From the IMG/VR virus record IMGVR_UViG_3300037145_000020, positions 1 to 59,133 of that record: 59,133 bases of DNA. The stretch is one strand, 5' to 3'. Under the pieces are notes generated by a model. That model was not told where the DNA came from and made no database searches. It was given only the letters and a program-made list of their open reading frames with translations. Below are positions 24,350 through 54,645 of the stretch, in pieces. Position numbers and translations under genes: made by a program. How positions within the stretch are numbered: the stretch's first letter is position 1; the number at the start of each line of letters is the position of its first letter. Source of the DNA: a virus (Duplodnaviria; Caudoviricetes).

Positions 24350-25144
24350 TTAGTGGCCTACGCCAAAATCGTATTGAATTCCTACGCGGTACACAGTCTG
24401 CATTGAGGCGCTGGCGCTTACCTGTAGCGGCGCACCGCCTGGTGCAGCAAACACGCCGGTCAGGTCAGCGCCCTTCGTCGGCCATTCAATATCGGCGTGG
24501 ATTTTCAACGAGCCGTTGTTCGGAAGGCCATTCGTGCCGAGCGTCTGCCATCGGTAGCCAGTCGTCACGCCAGGAGCCAAGCCCCATGTCTGTCCGCTGG
24601 CTGAGCCGAAGGTCCCGGCGATCTCATACTCGTCCAAAATGAAACCGAGGTACTGTCGCGGAATCGTCGCGACAGCGATGTTCGCCGGCAGCATCCCCGA
24701 TGGATTGAATGTGGGAAAACTTATGCCGACATTGCCGACTGCCGCGAGGATCGTCTGGAAGACCTGCGCGCCGACGTCGAATTCCTCTCGAATACTCCAA
24801 AGGGAATTGACCGAAGCCCCACCCATCGAGCCGCTGATGTTCTGATACCGCAGATCGACCTCGATCTGACACCACGTCTGCAGAAGGCAGTTGCTCCAGA
24901 TGTATCCGGCATCGACGCCGACCGCGCCGCCATCAGATGTGAGATTGCCGCCAGTGAGGTTGGGAAAGGCGGAGCCGTTCACACTCGAGGAGGCCACGGC
25001 TGCGTCGGTTCCGACTCCGAGGTACCAGCCTGAGCCGGCGGGAGCGAAGGGCTGAATGTACGGAGGTGCCTTCAAGGGCATGTCGGCCGCAAAGGCCGGC
25101 GCGGCGATGAAAAACGCAACGGCAGCGAGAAGTAATTTCCGCAT
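24350..25144 (-). CDS. outer-membrane beta-barrel protein (Omp25/RopB-like)
   Basis: Signal peptide, ADMPLKAPP, GWYLG, C-terminal RVGIQYDF. Confidence 0.8.
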   Translation of the reverse strand: MRKLLLAAVAFFIAAPAFAADMPLKAPPYIQPFAPAGSGWYLGVGTDAAVASSSVNGSAFPNLTGGNLTSDGGAVGVDAGYIWSNCLLQTWCQIEVDLRYQNISGSMGGASVNSLWSIREEFDVGAQVFQTILAAVGNVGISFPTFNPSGMLPANIAVATIPRQYLGFILDEYEIAGTFGSASGQTWGLAPGVTTGYRWQTLGTNGLPNNGSLKIHADIEWPTKGADLTGVFAAPGGAPLQVSASASMQTVYRVGIQYDFGVGH

Positions 25145-25222: not shown

Positions 25223-26056
25223 TTACTTTGCGGTGCGCAATTTGGCGGTGATCGCGGCCCATGTGGCTGGCCCGGCAATGCCGTCGGGCTGAAGGTGGAC
25301 GTTCTGCTGGAACTGGCGCACGGCGGCTGATGTCGTCCGACCATACGAACCATCCACGGTCAGGGCTGGATTGGCCCCCAGGCGGTTCAGAGCCTCTTGC
25401 AGGGCGGCTCCGCTATGGAGCCCCTGCGGAGGTGGCATCGGGGGCGGAACGCTTGCTGGCGGCGTTTCTTGTGGCGTTACGGCCCCTGCCAACTGGAGGG
25501 CGGGTTCCAGGGCTACCATCCGAAGCATAACTGGCACGATGCCGACCTGCTCATCGATGGCTGTCGCACTCCAGACGTTGTCGCGAATGTACTTCCCGCC
25601 CGTATAGATGTTCGTGCCCGCGAATAGATAGCCAGTGTGCTTGCCGTGCTCTCGGGGGCCGAATCCATTCCAGGCTTCGCCCTCGTACATTGAACGCGGC
25701 CAAGTCCATCCGACCACCTGGTCGATCTTGTCGAGGTGCAGGGCATCGCGGAGGCCATTCTCAAATGCGCTCGGGCCAGTGAATGGACCGCGGCCTCGCG
25801 GGACGTCTGAGGTCTTGCGGTCGAGAGGATCGCCATTGCCAAAATAGGTTCGGAAGATTCCCGCTCCGCCTTCGCGCTCGCCGACTGCGGCAAGCCAGAT
25901 CGCCGGCACTCCCGTCGTGTGGCTCACGTCCGTGTAGTGGGGCAGGTAAGTCAGCAGGCGTTCGGCCGTCTCATCCACTTCGGCCTCGCGCGTCACCACC
26001 ATGCTCGCGAGGAGCGAGGTGTATTCCGCGGAGAGGGTGTCGAAGGGAAAGTTCAT
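25223..26056 (-). CDS. endolysin with C-terminal peptidoglycan-binding domain
   Basis: Lysozyme-like N-terminus (ERE..NGDPL..VP.GRGPF..E..NG.G); LQ.ALN.LG..L.VDG.YG..T..AV..FQ..DGI.GP.TW. Confidence 0.88.
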   Translation of the reverse strand: MNFPFDTLSAEYTSLLASMVVTREAEVDETAERLLTYLPHYTDVSHTTGVPAIWLAAVGEREGGAGIFRTYFGNGDPLDRKTSDVPRGRGPFTGPSAFENGLRDALHLDKIDQVVGWTWPRSMYEGEAWNGFGPREHGKHTGYLFAGTNIYTGGKYIRDNVWSATAIDEQVGIVPVMLRMVALEPALQLAGAVTPQETPPASVPPPMPPPQGLHSGAALQEALNRLGANPALTVDGSYGRTTSAAVRQFQQNVHLQPDGIAGPATWAAITAKLRTAK

Positions 26057-26850
26057 TGCGAGGGCACTGATATCCACAAAACAGTGAGCACCATCGAATT
26101 TTCCCCACCTGATCCGGTGTAGGCGGCATTGAAATTCGAATAGGTCACGGGCTCGTTGACCATGCCTGAGAGGACTATCAAGTTGTTGTTTGCGTAGCTC
26201 AGGCCGATGGCGCTCGGACCACCGCTTGGACCCCCGGATGAGCCGCCAATCGGCACTTGCTGATCGCCTCCGTCGGCCTGAAAGCTCGAACTGTTGTTGT
26301 AATAGAGGCCGCCTGCGCCTCCTCCCGTGAAGCTCTGCCCCACATTTTTGTAGACATACATCGCCTGCACAATTTCGATGACGGTATTGGCACCCTGTGC
26401 TGGGATGATGGTGATTGGGACGGTCGTGAGATTGGCAATTTGGGAATCAGTCAATCGGACTGTAGTGGCATTTACTGGACTGCTGCCGCCTCCGACTGCC
26501 GAGACTTTGCCGCCGCTGCAGGTCGTTGTTGCCCCATCGCAGGACAGCAATCCTTCGACCGAATTTGTCCCTAGTTGAATCGCTGGCGACGCATCGCTGC
26601 GCATGTATGTCGGCGCAGAGCCATTGATCGCGGCTGGGCCCGCCGTTGCCGTTGGATTTCCAGCGGATGGGCCGCCGCCTGACCCACAGGGCGCTCCCGC
26701 ATCCTCGGCTTGGTACGTTCCGAACCACTCCACGCAATTGCCGGGCGTGACGACGCCGTGCTGCTGCACGCCCGGTGGCGCAGAGAGTTGCGCTACTGCT
26801 GGCGAAGCCAGAAATGCGAGAGCGAGGCCGATTAGGATTCTTCGCATCAT
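26053..26850 (-). CDS. signal-peptide-bearing fibre/adhesin-like protein
   Basis: [21 protein letters not shown] signal; MRSDA fibre-type motif; four Cys. Confidence 0.65.
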   Translation of the reverse strand: MMRRILIGLALAFLASPAVAQLSAPPGVQQHGVVTPGNCVEWFGTYQAEDAGAPCGSGGGPSAGNPTATAGPAAINGSAPTYMRSDASPAIQLGTNSVEGLLSCDGATTTCSGGKVSAVGGGSSPVNATTVRLTDSQIANLTTVPITIIPAQGANTVIEIVQAMYVYKNVGQSFTGGGAGGLYYNNSSSFQADGGDQQVPIGGSSGGPSGGPSAIGLSYANNNLIVLSGMVNEPVTYSNFNAAYTGSGGENSMVLTVLWISVPSQ

Positions 26851-27569
26851 TGACCGTCGCATTGGTAATCGAACACATCCCCGCCGAGCACAGTGGCGAT
26901 CACGGTGATTGCAGTTTTCGAATAGGTATAGCCGAAGGCTGCAAGCGTGCTCTGCGATGTCACCCGGCAATGATTATAGGTCGTGAACGGCGTTGCGAAA
27001 GTGGCAGTGCAACTCGTTGCTGTCGATCCTACGGTGACCGTGCCAGAGAGATTGGTGGCGTTCGCGTCAACGCTTGGACTCGTGCCACATGCCGAGAGGA
27101 TAGGAGCGGCGCCAGCGGTGGCCGCGAGAAGCTGGACCGGATTGGCGTATTCGTAGAAAAGACCTGCAGTCGTGATCCAGAAATCGCCCAGCAGAGGCGA
27201 TGTCGGCGCGGTACCGGCCGGAATGTTGAGTCCTGCGGCTCCCGTTCCAGGCGCCACCAGGACAAGCTTCCCCGTGAGGGTCCCGCCAGTCAGCGGGAGA
27301 TATGGACCACCGGTCGCATCGGCTTTTTGCTGAAAACAGAAATTCCACTGCGCGGCCGTCAAGACAGCGCCATAGGCGATGTATGAGCATGCGGACTGCG
27401 CATTCGCCGGGCGCGGCGTGATCGACAGAAACGCAGCGAACGCAAGCGCCATGAAACGCAGCATGTCTCGGCTCGGTATCATTCGTCCCGTCATCTCGCT
27501 GGCACGTTGGACCGGAGCCGCGTCCCGTCGCCGCCAGATCGAGGCAATGAGTCGCCAGATCATCTTCAT
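26847..27569 (-). CDS. tail fibre-like protein with signal peptide
   Basis: [14 protein letters not shown] and [11 protein letters not shown] fibre motifs; hydrophobic leader ending ANA-Q. Confidence 0.7.
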
Positions 27570-29071
27570 CCCATGATCTCTATCAGTTCGAAGTAGCTGT
27601 TGTTGATGCCGCCAGTCTCGGTGCTGCCAATCGTGTTGATGTTGTATGTGGTCGAAGATGTCGAATAGAGCGTGTCCATGTAGAAGCACGTCATGCTCGC
27701 ATCCCCGGCGGCTCCCGTGTTGTTTATATAGAACTGCGTCTGCTGCGTATTGATGACCGTGGACACCCGAAGCAAATTCAACAGCAGCGAATAGTTTCCT
27801 GGCCCTCCGCTTGCAACAAGATTGACATAGGCGCTGGCCGTAACCTTGATGGGGTTTACGGTGCTGGTCGGAACGATCGGCTCTGACGTCGTATCGAAGC
27901 CGACTATGCTCTGGACAGGTTCTCCAGGCTTAGCGGTCCCCTGATCGAGAACCTGAAGCGTGGTGCAGGCAGACGCCCACGTTCCCGCAGTGGTCAGCCC
28001 GCTGGAATATTCGCAATAACCGAGGATGCGGATTGCGTCATTGCTGACGCCAGAAGTTGCGTAAAGCGTTCCAGCGGCCGTCGATGAGCCAGAGATTGCC
28101 GCCGGGCTAGCGCGGTTCGTCTCCCAGGACTTGCACCCATAGATCGTTACGGTGGTGCTGACTTTCGCGGAGCAGGTTGCAACGCCGACCTGTGGTGAAC
28201 CTCCATTGTATGTCTCGAATATCCAAACGCGGAAAGGAGTCGAGTTGATTGTTCCGAGCGTCGCCCCACTCGGTATCGTTACGCAATTCGAGGCCGTGAC
28301 CGTAGTGTTGATAACCGTCCCGGTGGCCAGCGAGGTTGACCGGAATGGAATCACGACCGGGCTGGAAGAGCTAGGCGTCGATCCTGAAGCGGTCGTCACA
28401 CAGACTTGCAATTCTGTGGCCCCGCCGATGGATGCGGCCGAGAGCCCAAGATTTATTGGAATCAGAGACCCGGTCCCATTGGAGGCCGATGTAACTCGGC
28501 CATCCGCTGCGACCGTGAATGTCGGGTTGACGTATGTACCGGCCGAAACGCCGCTATTGGCGATGGTCGGATTGGGAAGCGTGCCGGTGAGCGAGCCGCC
28601 GACCGTGCAACTGTTCAGCCAATTCGCGCCGGCCGCGTCAGGGTTGCTGTTGTTGTTGTCAACCTGAGAGACCCAGAAGCATCCAGGCGATGCGGCTTGC
28701 TGAAGTGTTGCTCCATTCGGATAGCCGCCGATACCAGACTGGAATGTCGCATCGTATTTGACCGCTCCGCCAGCGTTTGACCACTGCGTCCACTGCGAAA
28801 GCTGGCAGAGCACGCCGTTGAAGTCTTGGCCGAATGGAGGAATGCCGCCAGATCCCGCCGGTAGGAATGTCGCGGGCGGAAATCCTGTAGTCCACGATGC
28901 CCGGCCGGGAGTGACCACACCGGAGATCGGAATCGGACAGGTGATATCGCCTCCAGGCGCGGAGACGCCCCAATAACTCGGAATCTTCACCGGGATGGAC
29001 GAGGCGTTCATCGCTTGCGCGACGGAGCAAAGAGCAATGAGACCAGCTAGCGCGGTTAGTATCTTACGCAT
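27566..29071 (-). CDS. main tail fibre protein with N-terminal signal peptide
   Basis: IP..GRASW..GFPP.T..GG.PP.G.DFNG.L..W..AGG..YD......IGGYP.GA, a baseplate-docking domain typical of this myovirus type. Confidence 0.8.
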
Positions 29072-29091
29072 TTTCGTCCTATGCCTTGTGG

Positions 29092-30005: not shown

Positions 30006-30232
30006 TGCCCCTCCAGGCCAAGTTTTCGGATTAGTTCTGGTGGGATCGGATCATTGGCGCCCATGGAGATCGTTTCAAAGCCGTATAGAGCTTTGACGTT
30101 GCGCGCCGCCGCTATGAGTTCGATAAGCGGCTGAGGCCAACCTGTGGTGGGCGCGAGATCGGCGATCTCACAAACCGGCCTGATGAGATCGTCGATAGTG
30201 TCTTGGCTTGGTCCAGGCTTAGTTTTTCTCAT
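30002..30232 (-). CDS. hypothetical protein
   Basis: ATGA coupling. Confidence 0.5.
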   Translation of the reverse strand: MRKTKPGPSQDTIDDLIRPVCEIADLAPTTGWPQPLIELIAAARNVKALYGFETISMGANDPIPPELIRKLGLEGQ

Positions 30233-30912
30233 GCTTGCACCACCGTTGCTGCGACTCCCGTTGTCCTCGGCAGCACGCCTGAATTCGTCACGATGGCATC
30301 CTGCACCGGAGTGAGCGGGAATTCGAAGGTGTAAGTCATCGTGAGATTGAGTCCGTCAGTACAATAGCAATTCCCGAGGCCAGGGAACAGATTGAGCAGG
30401 AGTTGGTTGATCGACGGAATTGAGCCGTCGCAAATGTTCGCGAGCGCCTTAGCGAAGAGCAGCGTCCGGTATGCGGCGTCGGTGAGGGAGAAGTTTGTCG
30501 TGACTCCTGCGCCTCCCGAATAGAACGGTGCTTGGCCGAATGGCGTCAGTGTCGTCGGCGTGCCCGCTTCCTCGAAGCCGAGATACGGTCCGGAGCCCGC
30601 ATCGGGGACCGAGATCACGCGGGTGATTCCGAGGACCCGTCCTAATCGATCAAGACCGTAACCGATCGCTGTATCAATCGACCAAACATCATCGAAAAAT
30701 TGATCAAAGTTCTCCGTTGGGTCGACGTACTGCGCCATGTTGGTGACAAGCGCCATCAGCGTCGCGCTGTTGGCGTATTGGCTGAGCACGGTCAACCAAA
30801 TGTCGAAGGCCGGAATCGTCCCAACGGGGCTAACGCCGATGGTGAAGGAACCTACGGCATTCGATCCAGCCGGGTTTGGATTAGGATATACGGGACCTGG
30901 ACCGGCTGGCAT
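30229..30912 (-). CDS. baseplate wedge protein (DUF2612)
   Basis: SQYANS..W.IDTA.G.GLD..GR..G..R; L.D..YR.L..KA..NI. Confidence 0.85.
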   Translation of the reverse strand: MPAGPGPVYPNPNPAGSNAVGSFTIGVSPVGTIPAFDIWLTVLSQYANSATLMALVTNMAQYVDPTENFDQFFDDVWSIDTAIGYGLDRLGRVLGITRVISVPDAGSGPYLGFEEAGTPTTLTPFGQAPFYSGGAGVTTNFSLTDAAYRTLLFAKALANICDGSIPSINQLLLNLFPGLGNCYCTDGLNLTMTYTFEFPLTPVQDAIVTNSGVLPRTTGVAATVVQA

Positions 30913-32798
30913 CAGGTCACCGTCACTGCGATGTTGCCGGCATTGATGGTTGGCTCTTGCGCAATGCCCACTGCAACATCGGCCGAGCCAGCAGCAACGG
31001 CGGTGACCGTGACGCCCGCAGTGATCGATGCGCTCGATGCGGTCGTGGCTCCCGAGGTCACATAGACGCCAGCGCCACCCGGCGTACCGGAAGTCTGGGA
31101 CACGATTGTCGTGCCTGTCGGGACGCCCGTGCCTGCGATCACGTCGCCGATGCCGATGGTGCCGGTCACTGAGGTGGTCGTGAGATTGGTTCCCGAGCCG
31201 CTACCGGTGAAAGTCGCGCCGGCAACGGTTGCCGATGCACTGAGGTTGTAGGTGCCGGCGCCGCCTGATCCGCTCCCGAAGCTCACGATTGTCGTGCCAA
31301 TCGGAATGCCGGAAACCGAGTCGAGGCCGGTTACCCACTGCCCGACCGCAAGCGTCCCGCTGACCACCGCAGTAACGGTCAGGACCGTGCCGGCAACGCT
31401 GCCCACCACGACGGCACCGGCCGAATTTGCCGAGCCGACTTGGATGGTTCTGATCGCGGCCCAAGGGCCTAGCGCCGCGACCACTGCGCCATATTGGATG
31501 GCATAGATCACCGAGCCGATGCGCGCTCGAGGAGGCGTGGGGGTGTTTGTGACTGGTGCCGCGGTGATCGTGGTCGACGCCACTGTCTGCGTCGTGTTGA
31601 CCACGTAGGTGCCCGCGTTGCCTTGGCCTGTGCCGAGCGCGGTGATCGTGGTGCCTGGGACAACGTTGGGCCCGGAGATTGTCTGTCCCACACCGATCGT
31701 GCCGGCGCTGATCGAGGTGACTGTGAGCGTGGTGCCGGCGATCGATCCGACGAAGGTCGCGCCGGCCGTGGTCCCAGTGAAAGCCGCGATGATTGCTGCC
31801 TGGACGAGTGCCACTGCGGTGGAGGGCACCAGCGGGCTGTTCGCAATGTTGACAGCGAAGTAAATCGGCAGTGTCGCCGGGATGTTGAAGGTGATGTTGT
31901 AGGTCGGGAACGGCGGCGAATAGGCTGGATTCGTATCCTCCACCGCAACCGTGGTGTTCCCGTTCATCGGGATGCCGGGGGGCTTTTTCTTCCAGATCGC
32001 CTGGGCAACAGCGGAAGCAACGCCTCCGGTCGCGGCGACGTAGACCGAATTTGCCGCCAGCGTGTAGCCGCCGATCGTGGCGGGTGAGTTTGTTGGGTTG
32101 TCGATCACGTAGGCGTCGAGGACGCCTGGCACACTCAGAACTGCCCCGAGGATTGCCGTGTTCGAATTGACCGCATTGGCGGCGACGCTCTGCTGCCTTC
32201 GGAGCTCGAACTGCTGCGAGGTCTCAGTGTTCTGCCCGACGTCGCCGGAGATGACCGTCGCCGTATCCCATCCGGGGATGGTTTGGTAAATCGTGACCGT
32301 CTCTGGGATGGCGAGTGGGCCAGGAACGAGAGCGGCGAATTGCAGCGTGATCGAGCCCCCGCTCGGTATCGTTCCGCCTCCGGTGCATTGGTAGAGATTC
32401 CCGGCCGAATCCACGACCGTTGCGAAGCTGGTCGGTCCGCCGGGGAGGACCGTGTCGTTTGCGCCGACGCAGGCGATCTGCAGGGTGGTCGGCTCGGCGG
32501 AATCCCTCTTCAGAAAGTTGATGCGCGCGATGGCGTCCTGCATGCGCCCTTGGGCGAAGGCAGGATCGGTCTGCGTCACGTAGTACGTAATGATCTGATA
32601 GAAATTGTTGATGCACGCGGCTTGGCTCGATGCGAGTTGGCTTTGCGGTGCGGAGCCATTGCTCCAATTGAACGTGACGTTGAAGCTCTGGTTATAATCG
32701 GCCTGCACGCCAGCAAGAATTGCCGGGCCTGACGGAGCGATGACTCCGAGCGGTCCCCACGACAGTGCTGGAACGTTCGTTGTTCCGACGTTTGCCAT
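30912..32798 (-). CDS. baseplate J-like protein with three inserted beta modules
   Basis: PQ.QLASS..DP..A.GRMQDAI.RI; ET...FE.RR..SVA.N; NS.YV...GG. Confidence 0.85.
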
Positions 32799-33181
32799 CA
32801 ACCGGCCCCCTGCGGACTCGCGACGGAAAAGGAAGCGGCCGAGGCTTGTCCGCTCGTTGAAATGACCTGCACCTGTCCGGAGATTCCACGGTTGTTAAAC
32901 GACGAAATGAAAACCTGCGCTGAGGCCACGTCGGGAACGGTCAGGGCCGCGTTCTGCAGAAGCTCTTTCAGTAGCGTGAGCGGCGGGGTGGCTTGGCCGA
33001 AAATCTGCTGAAGGTAATGGACACCCAGCGTGTTATCCCAGAAGTATTCGGCGAGCCACATGCGAATGGCGCTCGCTGCGTCTTGCGCAAGGCTGTATGG
33101 TTCTCCCGCAACGGCGATGTTGTTTGCCGCGTTGACAACCAAATCCCAGCTTTCGATATCCAGAAGCAGCGTGCTCGCCAC
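32798..33181 (-). CDS. baseplate protein (W/gp25-like)
   Basis: TLLLD..WDL...NIAVA..PY..AQD.ASAIR....E. Confidence 0.75.
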
Positions 33182-33867: not shown

Positions 33868-34845
33868 TCACTGCTGCGGTATCGGCCGACCGTAGGCTGG
33901 GTTGTAGCAGTAAACCGTACTCATCCACTGCCCGTTTCTCACCAGCGAATCCAGGGCGTGATCGAGCTTGTAGACGCCCCACACGGAATTGCCATTGACC
34001 ATCTGCGGCGGCTTGAATGTCTGGCTGCTTGATGACGCTGCCGAAAGGGTACCGGAGAGCAGACTGCTGTTGACCTGCACCGTTCCCCCCAAGGCAATCA
34101 GCGGATTAAAAAGCGTTTTGACGATCACGCCCTGCTTGGTGATCGTCGGATATCCGATCATCTCTCCGTTGGGGAGAGGAGAAATAACCGGAGAGGTGAT
34201 TGTGCTATTGCTCCGGACTCCTCCGAGCGGCCAGATTGCCAGCGTGTTTGATCTGGTATCCAGAGCGCAAGCAATGCGGGCGTGATCCTTGACGGCTTGT
34301 ATCTGGTCATAAAGCGTGCCGGGAAAATACGGATTCGGCAGTTGGACGCTGACGCCGTTATTCTCGAATTTCATCCCGAGTTGCCGAGCGAAGCCCGACA
34401 TGATCGTGGCGACGTCTGTGGAGCCCGTGAAGCCTGATGGTGTGGCCGGCGCCACCGCCGAAGCGACTCCGCTGACCGACTCGAACACAAACGGCACATC
34501 GGGCATGCCATCGAAGTCGGGATAGGCGTTCAGGATGGTCCCAGAGAACACCGTGGCCTGCCTGGCGACGGCATCTCCCGCGGTGACCGTGATCGAATTC
34601 TTCGGGACGAGGTTGAAGGAAACGCCCAACGTCGAAAGCTGATAGATCAGGCTCGGCGTCAATCCCCAAACCTTGACCTGTGCCTTTTGCTCGATGACGG
34701 CGCCAGAGTTTTGCACGCGCACGCTTGTGCGCAGGTTCGCAATCGTCGCGGTCGATCCGCCCTCGGAGAAGTTATTCGGCTGGTTGGTGCCGGCGTTGTT
34801 CGCGAGCGCCACCGCCAGCGTGATGAGCTTTTGGGTGAAACTCAT
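33868..34845 (-). CDS. baseplate hub protein
   Basis: MSF..K.I..V.GL..I...AGD..VF.GTI..A; FENNGV..L; MIGYP. Confidence 0.8.
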   Translation of the reverse strand: MSFTQKLITLAVALANNAGTNQPNNFSEGGSTATIANLRTSVRVQNSGAVIEQKAQVKVWGLTPSLIYQLSTLGVSFNLVPKNSITVTAGDAVARQATVFSGTILNAYPDFDGMPDVPFVFESVSGVASAVAPATPSGFTGSTDVATIMSGFARQLGMKFENNGVSVQLPNPYFPGTLYDQIQAVKDHARIACALDTRSNTLAIWPLGGVRSNSTITSPVISPLPNGEMIGYPTITKQGVIVKTLFNPLIALGGTVQVNSSLLSGTLSAASSSSQTFKPPQMVNGNSVWGVYKLDHALDSLVRNGQWMSTVYCYNPAYGRPIPQQ

Positions 34846-35168: not shown

Positions 35169-35965
35169 CAGTGGAAATCCGGCCCATCTCCCGGAAATCC
35201 GGGGACGTTGGTGGTGAGCGGCATCGACTGGACGTTACCACTGCTCTGCTGGCCGGCCGCTCCTGGGATTTGCGTGTTGCTGAATGCGGCCGATGATGTG
35301 ACGCGGACCTGCACGAAGTAAAGATCGGCGGCGATGAGCGTGGCGCCTTGGTCGTGTCTCCGCGAGAATGAAACCCGACGGCAGCTGCAGCTCGAATAGG
35401 TCCCTTCTGGGGTGACGATGTCAAACAGCGGTGGCGTTGCGCTGCCACTCAGAATTCCCCCGTTGATCGCCGAGGTGATCGAGCCGAGCGCGGAGGCCAT
35501 GGCCGTCGAAATCAGCGAGGACGATCCCAACGGGGAGCCACCGGCAATCGCCAGTATTGCGTTGATGAAGGCTTGGCGGTTGGAGGCATCGCCTCCCGCG
35601 GCGAGGCGCACGCGGACGTCGAAAGGCAGTTGGACCTTGTCGTATGACTGAAAGGCACCTTGCTCCTGTGGATAATCGGAGATCGTGAATTCCTGGTCGA
35701 ACTCGAATTCGATGGTCGAGGCCGCCACGGGGGTGAGGTTCGGGAGGCCGAGCGCGCCGGCCTGGATCGAAAATGGCCCGAGCAAAGCATTGACGTTCTG
35801 CCCGATCGAGGCTGGTTGGATGACCGGGACGCCTTGGTAATAGATGCCCCATGATGGCGGCGTAAATAGAATCCCCATCTGCGTGTCCGCGACCAGCAGG
35901 ACGGTAGGAAGCGCTGAATAGCTATTCAGCGGTGGTACGCCTGGGACATTCGGAACCTCCGGCAT
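35168..35965 (-). CDS. baseplate/tail tube initiator-like protein
   Basis: VP.VPGVP.L..WGIY; ISDYPQEQGAF.SY.KV..PF; VTPE..Y. Confidence 0.75.
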   Translation of the reverse strand: MPEVPNVPGVPPLNSYSALPTVLLVADTQMGILFTPPSWGIYYQGVPVIQPASIGQNVNALLGPFSIQAGALGLPNLTPVAASTIEFEFDQEFTISDYPQEQGAFQSYDKVQLPFDVRVRLAAGGDASNRQAFINAILAIAGGSPLGSSSLISTAMASALGSITSAINGGILSGSATPPLFDIVTPEGTYSSCSCRRVSFSRRHDQGATLIAADLYFVQVRVTSSAAFSNTQIPGAAGQQSSGNVQSMPLTTNVPGFPGDGPDFH

Positions 35966-37743
35966 CAGACGAGTCCCTGATTCCAGGAGCCGAGTGACGC
36001 TTGGCGCTTCAGCGCTTCATTAATATCGCCTGCAATCCCTTTGGCATCCGTAGCTGGCGTGTGGATGTTGATTTCTCCGACCTCGATTGTCGTCGTTCGA
36101 TTCGAGGAACTGTTCGTGTTGTAGGACGAATGCTGCGCAGCCGCACCAGCACCATATGGAAGGACAGGGCCGCCGGGCCAGCCCATCCATGAGCCTGGAC
36201 CATGATCCCTGAGCCATTCTAGGGCAAAGCGATCCTGCTCCTGCCATGTTGACTGATCGCGGGCATTTTTTCCGGTAGCCGCCGTGAATTTGTCGCCCAA
36301 GCCGGGATGTGGATATCGGGCTGATAGCCCTCCGTAATGAAGCTGAAAATCGCCAAATGAGGAATTATCATCGCCGATCTTTCCAGGGAATCCCTCGCGC
36401 CTAGCAAATTGCATCATTTGGTCTGGGTTGACGCCAAGTTCGACAGCAGTTTTGCGGATGAAGGCTTCGCGTGTCGCGGCATCGGCACCGCTACCGCCAA
36501 CGGGCCCTCTCCTGGCGCGCTCTGCCTCGTCCGACTCCCCTGCCGGGCCTGTTTCGACAGCAGTTTTGCGGATGAAGGCTTCGCGTGTCGCGGCATCGGC
36601 ACCGCTACCGCCAACGGGCCCTCTCCTGGCGTGCTCTGCCTCGTCCGACTCCCCTGCCGGGCCTGTCATACCCAATAGAGCACCGATAGGACCGAGCAAT
36701 CCCATTGCTCGACTCCCTGCAACAGTACCCAATCCCCGGATAACAGCCCTGCCAGCAGCCACGCCTGCGGCAGCAGCCGGACTCCTTTCAATAAGAGCCG
36801 TGAACCAATTTGCGGTGGCGGTAAGCGCAGCCCTGCCAGCAGCCCCTCCGACAAGCCATCGCAACAAAGGCAGCCCCCAGAGAGCTGTGAGAACCGCACT
36901 AACTGCAGCCACGCCTGCGGCAGCAGCCGGACTCCTTTCAATAAGAGCCGTGAACCAATTTGCGGTGGCGGTAAGCGCGGGCTCTAAAATGACCCCCAAG
37001 TTGCGCCCGAGCGCTGTCGATGCAGTATCGAGTCGGCCGGTGGCCTTTTGGTACTCGTCGGCAAGCTGTGCGGCTCTGCCGAGCGGGCCAGTGATCGATT
37101 TTATGTCTTTGACGCGCTTTTCGAGATCGGAACGGCCAGCCTGAGCTACGTTTACCGCGCTCTGATCCAAGCCGAGCAGGCCCATGAACAGTCTGGCTTG
37201 CTCTGGGCGGAGTTGGTTGATCGCATCCACGATTTCGAGAAAGAACTGGCCTGGGTCTTTCATCCCGCCTGCAGCATTCCGCGGGTTGACGTTGAGCCGC
37301 GTCGTGAGCGCGAGGAAGTTCTCCGAGGGAATGCCGGCGACAAACTTCTGCATCTCCGTGCTGAGCGTCTGCATCGTTTGAACGGCGCCCTCTTTCGAGC
37401 CGCCAAATTGTGTCCATATGTTCTCCCATGCGGACAGGTCCTCCGTGATCATGTCCATCGTCTTGGCGAAGCGGGCTGTAGCAGCATCGAGATTCGTAAT
37501 GTTAGTGATAAACTCCTTCGTCCCCATCCCGCCGATGAAGATTCCGGTCGCCTCGATCGCCAGACGCTTCATGTCGGAGAAGAATTCGAAGATTTTCTTT
37601 TGCTGCGATTCGACTTGATTGCCCGCGACGCGCGCCGCCTCCACCGTCTGCTTCAGCGAAGCCATGGCGGCTGCTTGGCCCGAAGTCATTTTCGTGGCGT
37701 CGATTCCGAATTCGAGCACGAAAGCGTCAATGACAGACGGAAT
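35965..37743 (-). CDS. tape measure protein with C-terminal lysozyme-like domain; ATT start
   Basis: Position after chaperones; helical Ala-rich body; AGGAGG-5 nt-ATT giving (M)PSVIDAFVLEFG; C-terminal REG..GDFQL..W..W. Confidence 0.8.
   Translation of the reverse strand: MPSVIDAFVLEFGIDATKMTSGQAAAMASLKQTVEAARVAGNQVESQQKKIFEFFSDMKRLAIEATGIFIGGMGTKEFITNITNLDAATARFAKTMDMITEDLSAWENIWTQFGGSKEGAVQTMQTLSTEMQKFVAGIPSENFLALTTRLNVNPRNAAGGMKDPGQFFLEIVDAINQLRPEQARLFMGLLGLDQSAVNVAQAGRSDLEKRVKDIKSITGPLGRAAQLADEYQKATGRLDTASTALGRNLGVILEPALTATANWFTALIERSPAAAAGVAAVSAVLTALWGLPLLRWLVGGAAGRAALTATANWFTALIERSPAAAAGVAAGRAVIRGLGTVAGSRAMGLLGPIGALLGMTGPAGESDEAEHARRGPVGGSGADAATREAFIRKTAVETGPAGESDEAERARRGPVGGSGADAATREAFIRKTAVELGVNPDQMMQFARREGFPGKIGDDNSSFGDFQLHYGGLSARYPHPGLGDKFTAATGKNARDQSTWQEQDRFALEWLRDHGPGSWMGWPGGPVLPYGAGAAAQHSSYNTNSSSNRTTTIEVGEINIHTPATDAKGIAGDINEALKRQASLGSWNQGLV
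36439..36666. repeat. 114-bp tandem duplication in tape measure gene
   Basis: 36439-36552 and 36553-36666 differ at one base seen by eye. Confidence 0.9.
36755..36978. repeat. 74-bp direct repeat in tape measure gene
   Basis: 36755-36828 equals 36905-36978 (ALTATANWFTALIERSPAAAAGVAA twice). Confidence 0.9.
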
Positions 37744-38546: not shown

Positions 38547-38782
38547 TGGTCTCTCCTTCGCCGCGCCTTCTCGGAGCGGTAAGCGTTCTCCGAGTCGATC
38601 AGAGCGACCTCGATCATATCATGAAGGTCCTCGACGGAATAAACGGTCTGCAATTCGTGGAGCGTCGCCGCTTTGAGCGACAGCGCCATTCCGATTATTC
38701 CGGGGAGGTTGGCGTACTCGGCATACTGAATTTCTTCGCTTCTTGGAGTAAGGCCGACAGGGCGTCGGCCGGCGAAAAATCC
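38543..38782 (-). CDS. tail assembly chaperone C-terminal extension (-1 frame)
   Basis: ATLHELQTVYS.EDL.D..EV motif; entered via GGATTTT at 38776-38782. Confidence 0.65.
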   Translation of the reverse strand, partial: GFFAGRRPVGLTPRSEEIQYAEYANLPGIIGMALSLKAATLHELQTVYSVEDLHDMIEVALIDSENAYRSEKARRRRDQ

Positions 38783-39195
38783 GTATGAAGGCGGAATACC
38801 TCCGACCGCAACCACATGATCGTCCTGGGTTCCTCGATGTCATCCTCGCCATGAAGAGCATCGGCGAGCGGGTATTGCGGGTCGGTTGGGTCTTTGACTG
38901 TCGCGACGCGCACAATTTTCACGCACTCCATCATCTGATCGAGCAGCGGTTCGAGCTTTTCGGGGTCGACGTCGGCGGCGAGAATTACATTCAAGCCACA
39001 TAGGGCTATGCCTGCCATCCCCAAGCGCGCGACTTCCAGCGGCAATTGTGCGCTGCTGCCCTTGAGCACGAGGGCCATGCGATAGCCCCACTTCTCCGCG
39101 CGCGCTGCAGGCCACTCAGTTAGCAGGAAATGCTTAGGCGGATTGGAGTCGCGCCCATAGCCGGGCGGGACGGTAACGACCAGTTTTTTGCGCAT
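38695..39195 (-). CDS. tail assembly chaperone
   Basis: GRD..K.F.LTE.PA..AE.W; PLLD.MM.CV; DIEE..T...LR.EV..LH.DF. Confidence 0.8.
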   Translation of the reverse strand: MRKKLVVTVPPGYGRDSNPPKHFLLTEWPAARAEKWGYRMALVLKGSSAQLPLEVARLGMAGIALCGLNVILAADVDPEKLEPLLDQMMECVKIVRVATVKDPTDPQYPLADALHGEDDIEEPRTIMWLRSEVFRLHTDFSPADALSALLQEAKKFSMPSTPTSPE

Positions 39196-39196
39196 G

Positions 39197-39637
39197 TCAC
39201 GCTGTCGGTTGCGGCAGGCAGAGGTTCCACTCGATGCGGAAGCGCTGCGGCAGCACGAGTTTCTTGCCTTGCGGGATAGGTTTGTATCCTCTCAGATAGC
39301 CGTTGATCGTCGTCCACATCTTCTGCAAGCCGGGCAGCGTGGTCGTGCCATTCGCCGTGTAGGTCGTCAGTCCTGATTGCTGGTAATTGTACCAAGCATC
39401 GAACAGCGGGATCGACGGGGAGTTCGCCTGCAGCATAAATTCCTGGATGACAGACTTGTAGACCATGCCGCCCGAGAGATAGCCGTCCACGCCCATCAGT
39501 GTCTCTGTCGGCTCGACTTCCGGCACCTCGTAGACGTCGTCGGCCGCGAAGCCCTGTAAGCGCTGCGGCGTCGTGAAACCAATCCCAGGAATTGTCAGCG
39601 TGATTGAGGCGTTCGCCGCCGTCAGATCGAGCCCCAT
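39197..39637 (-). CDS. tail tube protein
   Basis: T.AN..LQGFAADD..ET.MGVDG.LSGG; LQA.SPS..FD.W; directly after sheath. Confidence 0.8.
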   Translation of the reverse strand: MGLDLTAANASITLTIPGIGFTTPQRLQGFAADDVYEVPEVEPTETLMGVDGYLSGGMVYKSVIQEFMLQANSPSIPLFDAWYNYQQSGLTTYTANGTTTLPGLQKMWTTINGYLRGYKPIPQGKKLVLPQRFRIEWNLCLPQPTA

Positions 39638-39646: not shown

Positions 39647-41593
39647 CTATTGGACGAGGATGCTGCTCAAGTCGAGTGTGTTCACAGAACCGTTATCGAT
39701 ATAGAAAAATAGAATTGACCACGGTCCACGGCCGGCGCGCACGGTAGCGCTAGGGATGAGGACTTGCAGGTAGTAACCCTGCGTCTGCAATGCTCCCGCG
39801 ATGTTCGCTCCGGCGAGATTGTTAACCTCGAGGATTTCTGATGCATCCAACGTGTCTGGGCCGAACATGCGGAAATTCAGGCCAGCCTGAATGACCGTCT
39901 GCATGGCACCTGTGATCAGGTCGACGCCGGCTTGGTTGAACGGGATCGACAGCGTATTCGCGAGCAGATTGAGCAGTGCGGTCTGCGCTGAAGTATTGAA
40001 CCAGATTTGGTTCTCATAACTATCCGCCCACTCGAATGGCCCGGTGATTGAGCCATTCTGATTCCAGACGAAGTTCGCGTTCGCCGCGCCATATGCCCCG
40101 TAGAAATTGTAACCGTTGGCGAGCAGGTTCCCGGCCGTGGTTGGGTCGGTGACGTTGGCGGTGATGCCGGGCTGTTGACGGAAGGCGAACGAGGTTCGGC
40201 CGTTGGTGGCGCCGAAATTGGTCGACGCGGCAATGCCGAGATTGAAGGCGCATAGCCCGCTGTCCTGCGTGGCCCCTCCTTCCCAGATCAGCATCGTGCC
40301 GGAATCGTTGTCGGCCTTGAAGATTTGACCGAGGCTTGAAGCCGCATCGCTCGATGCGGCCGGGCTTTCGTCCGGGTCCCAGCAGAAATAGCCGAACCGG
40401 TTTCCGCCGAGAGCGGTGTTCTTCCACGCCGAGAAGGCTTGCTTGACCGTGTTGCCGTTCCCCCCATCGGGGTCGAATAGCGTCATGAAGTTCGCCCAAC
40501 TCACTGACTGGTTGATGAGCGAATTCATGAAGGTGGCCGGGACCGCAGCGTTCGCGCCCTGTGAAAGCGTGGCGCCTGTGGCCGAGGTCAGAAGCAGCGG
40601 AGCCGCGAGCGTCCCGGTGCAGAAGGCCGCGCTCGAATTCGATCCAGTTATTCCCGAGGTGATGACGAATGCGCCGGAGACTGAGTCGAAGGTGACTGTC
40701 GGCGCTGTCGCCGTGCTCGTCATCGCTTCTGGCGGAACGATGTTCTGCTGTGCGCCGCTGATCCGGTAGAGGCCGACCCCACCGGTGGTCCCTGAGATTT
40801 GCGAGAGAATGGACGGCGCCCCGGTCACACCAGAACCAGCAATGGTGAGACCAGCAGTGATCGTGCCAGTGATGGATCCGGTAACGTTGAGGACCGTTGA
40901 GGAGCCAGTGCAGGAGGCCGAACTAGCAGTCGTCGCGACGGATGTGACGTAGACGCCATCACCGCCAGGCGTACCAGAGGTCTGCGAGACGATCGTGGTC
41001 CCACTCGGCACTCCGGTGCCTGAGATCGTGTCGCCCACCGAAATGTATCCATTGGCGACGGCGGAGACCGTTAGGGCAGTGCCGCTGCCGCTCGCCGTGA
41101 AGCCTGCGCCGATCGATGCGGTAAACGATGCCTCGCTCGGATCGGTGAACGCCGCGCTGATCCCTGCGGCTGCTGCGGAGTAGCTGTTGTAACTGGCGAG
41201 GCTGATCGAACTAATGACATGGCTATATCCGTCCATCAAAACGGTGAGCGAGCCCGATAGGGCCTGCATCTGGGCAACCGTATTGATGGCGGCAAAGTTT
41301 CCACCGCGGAGATAGGCGGCGACGGCGCTTTCGTAATACTGCGCGAACAGGAGGGCCGACGGGAGGATAGTCGCGCCAGTGAAGCCGGCGAAGTAGATCG
41401 TCGCGAGCGAAGTCTCAAGCGCTCCGGGACCGAAAAAACTTGAAACCGCTTCCTCGTCCTCAAAACTCTGAACGGTTCCGACTGGAACGCGGGTATTCGT
41501 CGTGAGCATCAAGCCAGTGCCGTCGAGGCCCGTTCCGCCAGCGGAAATGACCGAGGGAACGACATTCACAATAGCCGAAGCAGGAATCGTCAT
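39647..41593 (-). CDS. tail sheath protein (DUF3383) with inserted beta modules
   Basis: IPAS.IV.V.P.V..AGG; A..YF.GF; NGR..AF..Q.G; L.ANGYNFYG.Y; IP.N..G. Confidence 0.9.
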   Translation of the reverse strand: MTIPASAIVNVVPSVISAGGTGLDGTGLMLTTNTRVPVGTVQSFEDEEAVSSFFGPGALETSLATIYFAGFTGATILPSALLFAQYYESAVAAYLRGGNFAAINTVAQMQALSGSLTVLMDGYSHVISSISLASYNSYSAAAAGISAAFTDPSEASFTASIGAGFTASGSGTALTVSAVANGYISVGDTISGTGVPSGTTIVSQTSGTPGGDGVYVTSVATTASSASCTGSSTVLNVTGSITGTITAGLTIAGSGVTGAPSILSQISGTTGGVGLYRISGAQQNIVPPEAMTSTATAPTVTFDSVSGAFVITSGITGSNSSAAFCTGTLAAPLLLTSATGATLSQGANAAVPATFMNSLINQSVSWANFMTLFDPDGGNGNTVKQAFSAWKNTALGGNRFGYFCWDPDESPAASSDAASSLGQIFKADNDSGTMLIWEGGATQDSGLCAFNLGIAASTNFGATNGRTSFAFRQQPGITANVTDPTTAGNLLANGYNFYGAYGAANANFVWNQNGSITGPFEWADSYENQIWFNTSAQTALLNLLANTLSIPFNQAGVDLITGAMQTVIQAGLNFRMFGPDTLDASEILEVNNLAGANIAGALQTQGYYLQVLIPSATVRAGRGPWSILFFYIDNGSVNTLDLSSILVQ

Positions 41594-41673: not shown

Positions 41674-42231
41674 TTACGGGCGCTTGATGAGCGTGATCGT
41701 GATGTCGAGGACAGCATTGTTGAGGTGCTTGACTGCGTACTGCTTGTATTCATCGTTTCGCGAGGCGATGTCCGGGTCGACCGCGTATCCGTAGGTGGCG
41801 GCAAAATCGAAATCGCATGTGATCGGGTATTGCTGGTGCTTGTTGGCCTCTCGGAAGGCTTTGTTGAACACCAGAAATGATGTCTCGCAGATCGGCGGCC
41901 ATTTGTAGAACGGGTCCGAGACTGACCGCATCGACATCCAATGCGGGGCTTTGATCGTGACCTTGGAACCTGGCTTGAGGATGCGCCAGCATTCCTGGAT
42001 GAATTGGACCCGCTCGGGACCGTCAAGGAATGAGAGATAATAGTTGCAGACGATGTCGCTGACCGAGTCCGCGTCCCATGGCCATGGGTACTGCTTCAGG
42101 TCGTGCTGTTGGTCGGTGTTGTCGAACTTGTGGAGATCGACACCGAGGTAGCCGTCAATCCTATGGTCGCCGCAGGCGAGATTGAGTTTCAATTCCGGCG
42201 CAAGTTCGACTTTGATAGCCGGCTCACTCAT
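41674..42231 (-). CDS. class I SAM-dependent methyltransferase-like protein
   Basis: LNLACG..GY.GVD..HDL..PW..DSV..E.WRILKPG. Confidence 0.75.
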   Translation of the reverse strand: MSEPAIKVELAPELKLNLACGDHRIDGYLGVDLHKFDNTDQQHDLKQYPWPWDADSVSDIVCNYYLSFLDGPERVQFIQECWRILKPGSKVTIKAPHWMSMRSVSDPFYKWPPICETSFLVFNKAFREANKHQQYPITCDFDFAATYGYAVDPDIASRNDEYKQYAVKHLNNAVLDITITLIKRP

Positions 42232-42806
42232 TTCTTCCTCATCACAATGGTGCCGTGAAACACAGCCGCGAATTCACATGTCGAGGCGATGGGATCGTCG
42301 CCTTCCTGTTCGCGCATGATCTTGCGGCATATCTCGGCCAGTCGCGCACCAGCATCGTCGTGAACGATATCCTCCAGAAGATAATAGCCACCAGATGACA
42401 GATGCGGCCAGAGCATGCGGAGGCTGGTCAATTGTTGCTCGGCGCTGTGGCCGCCGTCGTCGTTGATGATGTCGAATGGGGCGTGCGTGGTTATGAGACG
42501 CTGGAGATCATCTGCGTTCGCCTGATCGGCCGTGACAATGCCAATGCGTTCTTCGGCGTATTGCTGTTTGCCTTGGTCGTTATCTAGGCCGACGATTCGC
42601 GCATGGGGAAAGTAGTCTCGCCACATTTTCAGCGACCCACCACCACCGATGCCAATTTCGAGCAGCGTTTTGCACGATCCCATCCATTCGGCCAGAAAGA
42701 ATTCATAGAAGCCGAGATAGTCGTGCCCGGTCGAGCTTTTGTCGGTCCCGTATTGCTTGCCGAGATGATCGAGGAATCCGCGTCCGTACCATCTCACGGC
42801 AGGCAC
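42228..42806 (-). CDS. sugar O-methyltransferase (MycE/TylE-like)
   Basis: YGTDK..H.Y..YE; LLEIG..GGSL.MW..YFP; FDII.DDG.H; GG.Y..ED. Confidence 0.8.
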   Translation of the reverse strand: MPAVRWYGRGFLDHLGKQYGTDKSSTGHDYLGFYEFFLAEWMGSCKTLLEIGIGGGGSLKMWRDYFPHARIVGLDNDQGKQQYAEERIGIVTADQANADDLQRLITTHAPFDIINDDGGHSAEQQLTSLRMLWPHLSSGGYYLLEDIVHDDAGARLAEICRKIMREQEGDDPIASTCEFAAVFHGTIVMRKK

Positions 42807-43009
42807 TCAGCGTGAAATGTCTTACCGATCTCCCATGGCTTATACCAAGGGGCTGGAATGTAAAAAGCATCTTGGTTCCATTCGCAGCCTTTGCCACAGC
42901 CATCGCAAATTCGGACGCCATGGATGACATGCAGGCCCGGTCGGTTCTTTTCATCGACTTGTGCCTGCGCATAACCATCGGCGTAACCGCGTTCATATTC
43001 CTTCACCAC
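42794..43009 (-). CDS. hypothetical protein
   Basis: Small coupled ORF with CDGCG. Confidence 0.45.
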   Translation of the reverse strand: MVKEYERGYADGYAQAQVDEKNRPGLHVIHGVRICDGCGKGCEWNQDAFYIPAPWYKPWEIGKTFHAECLP

Positions 43010-43725
43010 ATGATCTCCTCATCCTGCGACCAGTGCCCAACGCGAATTGAGCAATCCACGCAGCATCGATAGCCGAACTGCCGCCAATCTTGCCATGCCC
43101 AGAGGTCTTGCGTGGCGCATCCTTCCGCAGTGTTTGCTACTGTTCTGAACCATGGCCGCCTTAACTTCGGGTCTTTGAAAATCTCCATACGGAATAGAGT
43201 AAATCCCATTCCGGTCCCGCAGCATTCTCTCAGGCCACCATTCGGGTCGGGAAGCTGCGGCCTGAAATTAATCGGATGCTTGTTCGGATCGCCCCATATT
43301 TGCGCAACGCCGCCATGGCCCTTGGTGAAGTAGAGTCCGCCAATGGCCGCGAATTCCGGATGCGCGTCGGCGCATGCGAGCAATCTAACGAGCCCGTCAG
43401 GCGGTGGCGCATTGTCGTGCTCGAGCGTGACGACGAATCTGAATTTTGAAAGCTCTGGATGATTGACCACAGATTCTATGGTCTGACTGTATGCCTCGCC
43501 GACTTCCATTCCTTGAGCAAACAGGCGTGCCACCTTTTGGTTGGGCGGATTCATCATATTCATCCAATTCGCCACGATCCGCGTTGGGATGCTGGCGAAA
43601 GCCGGGATGATGAGGACCGTCGATAGATCCTTGTAGGCCGCTTCCTCACGCAGCCGGATGACTGTCGCACCGAGATCAGCGCTGTGGGCACCTTCGTCGT
43701 AGCTGGAGAGGATCTGCGGCTTCAT
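43003..43725 (-). CDS. GT-A fold (GT2-like) glycosyltransferase
   Basis: VTLEHDN (DxD-like), GGLY, GTGMGFTL.R.EIF, QDL, GY...VD.SI..GH. Confidence 0.75.
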   Translation of the reverse strand: MKPQILSSYDEGAHSADLGATVIRLREEAAYKDLSTVLIIPAFASIPTRIVANWMNMMNPPNQKVARLFAQGMEVGEAYSQTIESVVNHPELSKFRFVVTLEHDNAPPPDGLVRLLACADAHPEFAAIGGLYFTKGHGGVAQIWGDPNKHPINFRPQLPDPNGGLRECCGTGMGFTLFRMEIFKDPKLRRPWFRTVANTAEGCATQDLWAWQDWRQFGYRCCVDCSIRVGHWSQDEEIMW

Positions 43726-43891
43726 GCTTCCATCCAACGCCACTCGGAAAGCGGCGTAACCACCGTGTGTCCAGGATGATCCAGCAACCCCCAGCCCTTT
43801 CTTGACTCATCCCAAAACACGCGAAACATGTGGCATGGGATGCCAGCTAGAATTATCCGGTCTCTAGGAGCATTTTCCATCGTATTTTCAC

Positions 43892-46779
<2,888 letters not shown>

Positions 46780-46780
<1 letters not shown>

Positions 46781-54192: not shown

Positions 54193-54645
54193 TCAGCCGG
54201 TCTTAACTTCGTAATCGATGCTGGCCAAGAGCTGGCCTGTATCGACCAAGGGTTTCTCGAATCCCTTCCGCCGTATTGTAGCAGGTTTCAGCGGCGGTTG
54301 GTTTGTGTCGATTATCGACTGCCTGATCTGGCCTGCAACGCCCTGCCCGAACTTCTCTAGCGCTGGTTTGGTTTGGTAGTCGTTGTCTTTCAGCAGGTCG
54401 CCGAGCGCCTTCGGCCATTCGGCTTTGTGCTCGGCAATCGCGTTCCGCATAAAGGGCCGAGGGGGGATTCCAGCAGCCGGAGCTCCGAAGTCCTGAATCG
54501 CAGCAATCATGGCCACCGGAGTGCCGTCCGGATAGCGCGACTTCTCAAGCACGCCAACCCGAAGCGTGCCTGGACTGGCGACTTTCGCCGCGAGAGTCCG
54601 AAGCGCCGCTTCGAGTTTGGCTCCCCCGCTCACAACGACAGACAT
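54193..54645 (-). CDS. neck/tail completion protein
   Basis: LRVG....YPDGTPVA.IA...FG....IPPRPF.R; PPL..TI.RKG..KPL.DTG. Confidence 0.85.
   Translation of the reverse strand: MSVVVSGGAKLEAALRTLAAKVASPGTLRVGVLEKSRYPDGTPVAMIAAIQDFGAPAAGIPPRPFMRNAIAEHKAEWPKALGDLLKDNDYQTKPALEKFGQGVAGQIRQSIIDTNQPPLKPATIRRKGFEKPLVDTGQLLASIDYEVKTG

Follow-up and report, generated by a model that had tools for sequence, protein, structure and literature searches.

Leader-bearing, cysteine-paired tail-fibre genes in an uncultured contractile-tailed phage suggest fibres that mature outside the cytoplasm

The assembly of tailed phages is, in textbook accounts, carried out wholly within the reducing cytoplasm of the host cell. 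Could there be tail fibres that mature outside it? The question is raised by three adjacent fibre-like genes, here called A, B and C, in the uncultured virus record IMGVR_UViG_3300037145_000020 (Caudoviricetes). The whole stretch that was analysed, referred to below as the window, has 59,133 bases with a G+C content of 59%, and is estimated to be ~83% complete. All three proteins begin with what looks like a signal peptide, and cysteines account for 2.4% of the residues of A, 2.5% of B and 1.5% of C; in each of the remaining virion proteins there are 0-4 cysteines, mostly less than 1% of the residues (two small ones have 1.2% and 2.8%). The reading that we favour, with modest confidence, takes A, B and C to be fibres of the baseplate, or accessories of such fibres, that would be exported through the general secretion (Sec) pathway, oxidised outside the cytoplasm, and joined to the particle after the membrane has been breached. 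That these fibres are exported and disulfide-bonded outside the cytoplasm is itself probable, as judged from patterns conserved among their relatives.

Gene A (27566-29071, minus strand) encodes 501 residues. A sequence-only reading of the window had proposed that the protein starts with a Sec leader ending in AQA, placed in front of the ancestral Met, and that the ribosome-binding site serves the upstream ATG and not the internal ATG at 29011. Both proposals are borne out. The AGGA is found at 29080-29077, and no purine-rich Shine-Dalgarno sequence is present in the 15 nt before the internal ATG. Positions 1-203 of the profile PHROG 12796 ('tail fiber protein') match residues 21-218 of A (6.4e-23), and thus the family begins at the internal Met. 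Two further profiles of the same annotation, phrog_38625 and phrog_1396, also match A, and its N-terminal part is matched by 172 phage records. Leaders were called, here and below, by a heuristic of our own for n-, h- and c-regions and by eye. Read directly from the sequence, the leaders of A, B and C all follow the pattern of Sec and signal peptidase I substrates, with a charged n-region, an h-region of ~8-15 residues and small residues at positions -3 and -1.

The leader is not peculiar to this phage. Among the 120 best homologues of A, 102 were flagged as leader-bearing. The 18 unflagged sequences comprise ten (P0106, P0109-P0116 and P0119) that begin at the domain itself (M.xS.IP.K) and have 0-4 cysteines, seven that match A in the C-terminal part only and are seemingly truncated or differently headed, and one (P0083) whose leader-like N-terminus the heuristic missed. 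Gene neighbourhoods were compared at 162 loci in total, two cultured phages included; these were taken from the best 80 of 562 confirmed candidates in viral contigs and the best 80 of 103 in genomes, ranked by likeness to A, and the leader shares are therefore not a census. A leader is present at 35 loci and absent at 123, with four unparsed (L020 and L026, positive by the heuristic, were re-classed as leaderless on inspection). Many of the leaderless loci have a stop codon 0-6 codons upstream of the domain Met, which shows that the leader-bearing and leaderless states are discrete. The family as a whole is large, with 7494 cluster representatives at E up to 0.001. In the best 150 of these, 68 align from profile position 8 or lower (leader present) and 82 from positions 23-25, by hand count, in a ranking biased toward leader-bearing members, which supplied most of the sequences in the profile.

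For 75 non-identical leader-bearing sequences, pooled and lined up at their invariant Pro27, the residue at -1 is Ala in 68 (otherwise Gly in four, Ser in two and Pro in one), that at -3 is Ala in 72, and the median leader length is 21 residues (range 18-38). AxA at a fixed junction is characteristic of cleavage sites for signal peptidase I, and a cut there would recreate the N-terminus of the leaderless fibres. The fibres of two cultured phages, PE067 gp25 (679 residues, 2 Cys) and Amjad_SA gp42 (422 residues, 1 Cys), begin exactly at this junction. Two other export routes were considered and rejected. The twin-arginine (Tat) route is contradicted by the leaders being short and strongly hydrophobic, with the RRx-hydrophobic motif in only 7/75; the leader of gene C contains MMRRILIG, yet it too is short and strongly hydrophobic. 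The lipoprotein route was dismissed on finding a lipobox-like motif in only 2/75.

A has 12 cysteines, 11 of which follow the leader (at 45, 89, 131, 155, 224, 263, 300, 313, 353, 369 and 462). An alignment of 200 non-identical N-domains shows that cysteine columns come and go in pairs: Cys45 and Cys89 occur together in 41 rows and singly in none, positions 56 and 77 together in 27 rows and singly in none, and Cys131 and Cys155 together in 37 rows and singly in two. At least one such pair is present in 70/75 leader-bearing N-domains, compared with 0/123 leaderless ones. In the C-terminal domain (74 sequences), 300 and 313 are both present in 71 and single in one, while 353 and 369 are both present in 64, single in none and both missing from ten; Cys462 has no partner column among the homologues. 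Whole chains tell the same story. Counting complete, non-identical mature fibres from the loci, those with a leader (n=30) have a median of 1.72 Cys per 100 residues and an even count in 28/30, and those without (n=110) a median of 0.43 and an even count in 53/110 (Mann-Whitney p=1.6e-11, binomial p=4e-7). The sequence-only reading had described the 11 mature cysteines of A as lying mostly in local pairs, which the co-occurring columns 45-89, 131-155, 300-313 and 353-369 back, and had suggested aligning homologous fibres to see whether leaders and pairs go together, which they do. Since it is conserved across so many homologues, the combination of leader and cysteines is far beyond chance.

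It is worth adding that a second family behaves in the same way. The mature N-terminus of B belongs to a module (..YG.VPT..QWN..F..KQD) present in 55/162 loci, mostly behind a leader; three of the 55 loci were unparsed, and by eye L011, L027, L038 and L053 were mis-parsed. The 47 non-identical proteins of this B-type family divide into 39 flagged as leader-bearing and eight leaderless, exemplified by ...AFA/QSSPNLSYGQVPTAGQWN (the slash marks the predicted cleavage site) and MGTSPGWSYAYVPTPAQWN, respectively. Complete leader-bearing chains (n=34) have a median of 1.19 Cys per 100 residues and an even count in 27/34, compared with a median of 0.20 in the leaderless ones (n=8; Mann-Whitney p=7e-5). 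The B-type family, which is unrelated to the A-type, thus repeats the split between leader and cysteines. Leaders also cluster downstream of A-type fibres: the first downstream open reading frame (ORF) has one in 19/29 leader-bearing loci as against 25/111 leaderless loci (chi-square ~19.7, hand calculation), while for ORFs upstream, on the baseplate side, the figures are 14/211 and 72/897. The original observation is confirmed, and is much broader than the view from a single phage suggested.

One B-type protein deserves separate mention. In a prophage of Rhizobium freirei PRF 81 (L111, 9417-11606) a leader-bearing member with 12 mature cysteines is flanked by the lysis genes on one side and, on the other, by a leaderless A-type fibre and a small ORF, and its central part is like tailspike/depolymerase or endo-N-acetylneuraminidase-domain proteins of cultured phages.

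In the window, all the cysteines of B (six) and C (four) lie behind leaders ending in ANA/Q and AVA/Q, just as the sequence-only reading had it. The longer starts listed for these ORFs (27689 for B, 26970 for C) are over-extensions. The start of B is the least certain of the three: from 27569 its leader would have 57 residues, and inner Mets, for example at 27464 (MLRFMALAF...), are alternative starts that give a canonical leader length. Fifteen homologues of gene C from outside the window were inspected by eye, and ~10 have a leader-like N-terminus and five do not. The public protein collection has gene C only from its internal Met, as a leaderless protein of 183 residues (P0121, window 26053-26604), which demonstrates that automatic gene calls can hide such leaders.

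The three genes are tied to each other and to the endolysin gene by ATGA overlaps: the ATG of B (27569) overlaps the stop of A, that of C (26850) the stop of B, and that of the endolysin (26056) the stop of C. The gap upstream of A is 20 nt long, no promoter-like site was found before A, and the sole terminator-like site near A-B-C on the minus strand comes after the lysin. Because of the three overlaps, A, B and C are members of a late operon and not a moron; on the grounds of these overlaps, the lack of an own promoter and the position of the terminator, we rejected the idea that they are moron or lysogenic-conversion genes.

Are they then part of the virion? The minus strand of the window holds the structural module of a myovirus, a phage with a contractile tail, as shown by Pfam and PHROG profile matches (Table 1). 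The gene order gp25-like, J-like, DUF2612, two small ORFs and gene A places A, B and C in the usual fibre-gene slot of such phages, with the endolysin next. This arrangement is general, in that a DUF2612 gene adjoins the homologue of A in 154/162 loci and a J-like gene in 149/162. No second copy of the N-domain of A was found on the contig, and the most conserved, baseplate-facing motif of this domain is invariant in leader-bearing members. When three copies of A(21-175) were modelled together with the DUF2612 protein, the score was 0.82, against 0.02 for the best of three controls; the score mark used is reached by 58/80 solved complexes and 2/110 mismatched pairs, a calibration that fits this job only roughly. 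The runs share at least 94% of their contacts, and the predicted local distance difference test (pLDDT) value of the partner is at least 63. The interface on A comprises residues 41-42, 55-56, 64, 67-82 and 84. The model thus supports docking of an N-domain trimer of A on the DUF2612 wedge protein. The docking loop lies between Cys45 and Cys89 and includes the alternative pair 56-77, so that a disulfide at either place would staple it. We note that the DUF2612 protein has relatives by sequence among solved wedge proteins (7kh1 gp17, 2.7e-18; 9zd7 gp89; 7yfz Pam3 gp23), and part of the docking score may therefore reflect likeness to solved baseplates; a search of PDB sequences with the fibre profile found no relative.

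The AlphaFold2 model of mature A is confident and β-rich in its C-terminal half (pLDDT 80-96 at model residues 185-481) and poor (below 50) at model residues 1-81 and 137-181, because the alignment used (A2) was weighted toward C-terminal homologues. Foldseek matches this model to proteins of uncultured phages and to tail-collar and tail fibres. Against the PDB it gives weak matches only, to lambda gpJ, a Klebsiella phage baseplate chain and TNF-like jelly rolls, with template modelling scores of 0.2 or less over the whole chain. For B, C and two further leader-bearing fibre types (P0013 and P0021), no match was found in 50,697 phage records.

The following sequence of events would account for these findings. 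Genes A, B and C and the endolysin gene are translated late in a coupled chain, as the gene overlaps show. The three fibre proteins would pass through Sec and be cut after AxA, as the conserved motif suggests, leaving a mature N-terminus equal to the start of the leaderless fibres. Folding and trimerisation would take place in the oxidising periplasm, with disulfides 45-89, 131-155, 300-313 and 353-369 in A; we propose this because the cysteines co-occur, their counts are even and the pairs are restricted to leader-bearing forms. Meanwhile heads, tails and baseplates would be assembled in the cytoplasm free of A, B and C, as judged from the lack of a leader in any baseplate protein. With the inner membrane opened by the holin and the cell lysed, fibres and particles would meet, and A would dock through its N-domain loop (GFPP...GG.PP.G.D.NG) on the DUF2612 wedge, a step taken from the model. 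Fibreless T4 particles accept fibres in vitro, and late joining is therefore physically plausible. Sturdier receptor-binding proteins, stapled by oxidation, would be the likely gain; a further possible benefit is that particles could neither engage nor fire until released. Among those window proteins that were scanned, none was Dsb-like or a thioredoxin. DSBA-family genes are present in 5/5 host genomes examined, and the same Pfam family is present in 8/14 controls, including Gram-positive bacteria and archaea; this is weak evidence. In this scheme the two halves of the two-compartment idea put forward in the sequence-only reading fare differently. Export and disulfide bonding are strengthened by the AxA junction, the 70/75 against 0/123 association, the even counts and the repetition in the B-type family, while attachment at or after lysis is still something that we infer, from synteny, operon coupling, the single N-domain copy and one fold model.

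A number of observations weigh against this proposal. The mature cysteine count of A itself is odd. Two leader-bearing fibres (L013 and L023) have no cysteine, so disulfides are not the sole reason for export. On a FastTree tree of the short N-domain, made with the cysteine columns masked, the leader state changes at least eight times and the pair state at least six times; only four independent contrasts fall on supported branches, where a sign test is not significant (median p 0.25), and the perfect association between leader and cysteine pairs may therefore rest on few events. The codon at +1, directly after AxA, is ATG or TTG in 17/34 loci and ATG in A, leaving room for an internal start and a cytoplasmic form. 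At 20 loci, among them prophages of cultured Rhizobium freirei PRF 81, Labrys, Methylobacterium and Bradyrhizobium strains, a leaderless A-type fibre is paired with a leader-bearing B-type protein, so the exported protein is not always the sole fibre. Four small elements (L085-L088) have leader-bearing fibres with 10, 6, 10 and 10 mature cysteines and no baseplate genes nearby. Lastly, joining after lysis depends on concentration, and to our knowledge it has never been described for a tailed phage.

The mixed loci and the four elements lacking baseplate genes also lend something to a different view, unlikely in our judgement, in which the proteins are exported and never enter the virion, acting instead as free proteins in the periplasm or on the surface of the infected cell. 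Their possible roles would include receptor masking, superinfection exclusion, a decoy that keeps progeny off debris, and a soluble envelope depolymerase; the β-helix part of the Rhizobium freirei B-type protein does resemble tailspike/depolymerase domains. Leaders and a cysteine signature indicate export only and not incorporation, and in Bdellovibrio the MAT proteins are, in the available part of PMC10769870, phage-fibre-like trimers with signal peptides that serve a cell. What this view leaves unexplained is the N-domain of A, which is the start of annotated fibres of cultured myoviruses and stands in the same slot behind the J-like and DUF2612 genes. Its baseplate-facing motif is kept invariant behind leaders and is modelled on the wedge with a score far above the controls (0.82 vs 0.02). 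With no other copy of this domain on the contig the phage would lack this fibre altogether, and all three genes are coupled into the late operon in a way that a moron is not.

The internal codons bear on a further proposal, to which we give a small probability, namely that one gene has two products, an exported form from the upstream ATG and a cytoplasmic virion form from the internal codon. A keeps an ATG at the old start (29011), and at the 34 loci compared (L004-L135) the +1 codon is ATG in 10, TTG in 7, CTG in 7, ATC in 4, CTC in 2 and another in 4 (ATA in 1), such that 24/34 have a start or near-start codon there. The remaining 10/34 have ATC, CTC, CTA, GAG, ATA or GCC, and no Shine-Dalgarno-like run precedes the internal codon in A or, by eye in the 16 nt before it, at the 34 loci. 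Nearly all of the +1 codons are ATG or differ from it by a single substitution, a pattern that would be expected if an ancestral ATG had changed in one step to a codon for Leu or Ile, and cysteine pairs within the docking domain would have no use in a form that stays reduced. The +1 codons may be what is left of the ancestral initiator, or they may point to some remaining internal initiation. That the leader is a non-functional or artefactual extension, due to a chance upstream ATG or to gene calling, seems to us very improbable. Gene callers do disagree, as the public version of gene C that starts at the internal Met (P0121, 183 residues) illustrates; a chance extension would hardly keep its n/h/c architecture and AxA at a fixed position in 75 homologues, have a Shine-Dalgarno sequence before the upstream ATG and a cysteine signature behind the leader, or differ so discretely from leaderless relatives with their stop 0-6 codons before the domain Met.

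The four elements L085-L088 are paralogues, lying within ~280 kb on one contig of an alphaproteobacterial metagenome-assembled genome. The neighbours of L087 include a primase/helicase, a large-terminase-like gene, a leader-bearing Gly_rich_2 protein and a PEP-CTERM protein. Possibly these elements are phage satellites that supply their own exported fibres. We regard it as an evenly balanced proposition that virions are built in two compartments throughout a large, so far uncultured clade of contractile-tailed phages from soil- and plant-associated Proteobacteria and Acidobacteria, with the fibres docking only at the breach of the membrane by the holin, and that satellites such as these may exploit this by sending out fibres of their own for the particles of a helper.

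The positions of the main features are collected in Table 1.

Table 1. Structural, fibre and lysis features of the window, in the order in which they are read on the minus strand. A slash marks the predicted cleavage site.
Feature	Position	Strand	Remarks
Major head protein	57145-58281	-	
Neck protein	54193-54645	-	
orf625, late protein with hydrophobic leader	48987-50864	-	5 Cys; two-Cys module as in gene C
Sheath	39647-41593	-	
Tube-like protein	39197-39637	-	
Tail chaperone	38695-39195	-	
Tape measure	35965-37719	-	
Hub	33868-34845	-	
gp25-like wedge	32798-33181	-	
Baseplate J-like wedge protein	30912-32801	-	PHROG 6 'baseplate wedge subunit', 4.8e-30
DUF2612 baseplate wedge protein	30229-30912	-	Pfam DUF2612, 2.2e-50; predicted docking partner of fibre A N-domain
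Shine-Dalgarno AGGA of gene A	29077-29080	-	5 nt before ATG 29071; read from sequence
Fibre A leader, 20 residues	29012-29071	-	n-, h- and c-regions and AQA cleavage motif; read from sequence
Mature fibre A, 481 residues	27566-29011	-	N-domain (precursor ~21-175) and β-rich C-terminal part; PHROG, AlphaFold2, Foldseek
Gene B, short fibre-like protein	26847-27569	-	Leader ...PANA/QSAC, mature from 27398; 6 Cys
Gene C, fibre-like protein, 265 residues	26053-26850	-	Leader ...PAVA/QLSA, mature QLSAPPGV...; 4 Cys
Endolysin	25223-26056	-	C-terminal PG_binding_1, no leader; domain profile matches
Terminator-like hairpin after endolysin	25240-25228	-	

Some of the remaining genes of the window touch on the same subject. 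Gene C and orf625 share an N-terminal module of 33 residues with two cysteines (61% identity, E 3e-12). A 203-residue protein (orf203b, 51926-52537, minus strand) likewise has a hydrophobic leader (MRGFLMAPP...AAYAAAQT) and six cysteines. Neither orf625 nor the 203-residue protein has a Pfam or PHROG family match. Both lie between head and neck genes, and export may therefore extend beyond the baseplate fibres. Just after the hairpin a leader-bearing, outer-membrane-like protein of 264 residues is encoded (24350-25144, minus strand; MRKLLLAAVAFFIAAPAFA/AD...). It is a candidate moron, with relatives in 5/162 loci.

Between the neck and sheath genes there is a leaderless 'tail fiber' protein of 962 residues with collagen repeats and two cysteines (41674-46780, minus strand), and after it come two methyltransferase-like genes and a pair of small unknown ORFs. 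This protein may serve as a second, cytoplasmic fibre, or as a fibre of the head or neck. A repeat matched by phrog_21413/phrog_38233 is common to the J-like wedge protein, the neck terminator (47977-48990) and a 178-residue protein (58312-58848), all on the minus strand.

In a full-text literature search, with most subscription journals outside its scope, no tailed phage was found to be described as having secreted or periplasmic tail fibres. The available parts of PMC12210884, PMC3556154, PMC13266070 and PMC12946066 hold nothing bearing on exported tail fibres, and the available part of PMC13507307 gives signal peptides in 5% of prophage carbohydrate-active enzymes, tail fibres being excluded there. 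If the proposal is true, an exported and oxidised class of fibre would constitute a new assembly route for tailed phages, and Sec, signal peptidase and Dsb of the host would become functions on which the phage depends. A possible failure of such fibres in cytoplasmic expression, whether for structural studies or for engineering, would be explained as well. Annotation pipelines and gene callers may trim or overlook these leaders. Prophages with such genes occur in cultured strains, Bradyrhizobium oropedii Pear76 (L135, where both the A-type and the B-type gene have a leader) and Rhizobium freirei PRF 81 (L111, where the B-type gene has one), which makes the idea directly testable.

How do A, B and C compare with known systems? 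In descent, the nearest to them are the leaderless fibres of cultured myoviruses whose baseplates have J-like and DUF2612 proteins, for example gp25 of Burkholderia phage PE067 and gp42 of Pseudomonas phage Amjad_SA, which belong with PHROG 12796/38625/1396. They share the docking N-domain of A (39-41% identity over residues 21-167) and, like A, are found directly after the DUF2612 gene and have variable C-terminal parts. They differ in starting at the domain Met, with no leader and 1-2 cysteines, whereas A has a leader of 20 residues and 11 mature cysteines, including pairs inside the docking domain.

Morons of the lambda lom/bor type are leader-bearing exported proteins encoded in the tail/lysis region with a promoter and terminator of their own, and they have no homology to fibres. 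A, B and C resemble them in leader and location, and differ from them in being fibre homologues chained by ATGA overlaps into the late operon; the protein at 24350-25144 is a candidate for this type. One of the two closest parallels in working principle is the adsorption protein g3p of filamentous (Ff) phages, which has a Sec signal peptide, forms disulfides in the periplasm and is joined to the virion outside the cytoplasm. Like g3p, A would be an exported viral receptor-binding protein. However, Ff virions are extruded at the membrane without lysis, whereas here a tailed particle built in the cytoplasm would meet its fibres after the membrane is breached, and there is no sequence relation between g3p and A, B or C.

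The other parallel comes from a predatory bacterium. In the available part of PMC10769870, the mosaic adhesive trimer (MAT) proteins of Bdellovibrio bacteriovorus have a signal peptide followed directly by a conserved β-rich domain, and their mosaic C-terminal tips include TNF-like domains with disulphides. MAT and A are both phage-fibre-like proteins with signal peptides, and the model of A is weakly TNF-like or jelly-roll-like; the likeness is one of working principle. The MAT proteins are products of cellular genes shown on the predator's own surface, whereas A, B and C belong to the late operon of a phage, beside its baseplate and lysis genes.

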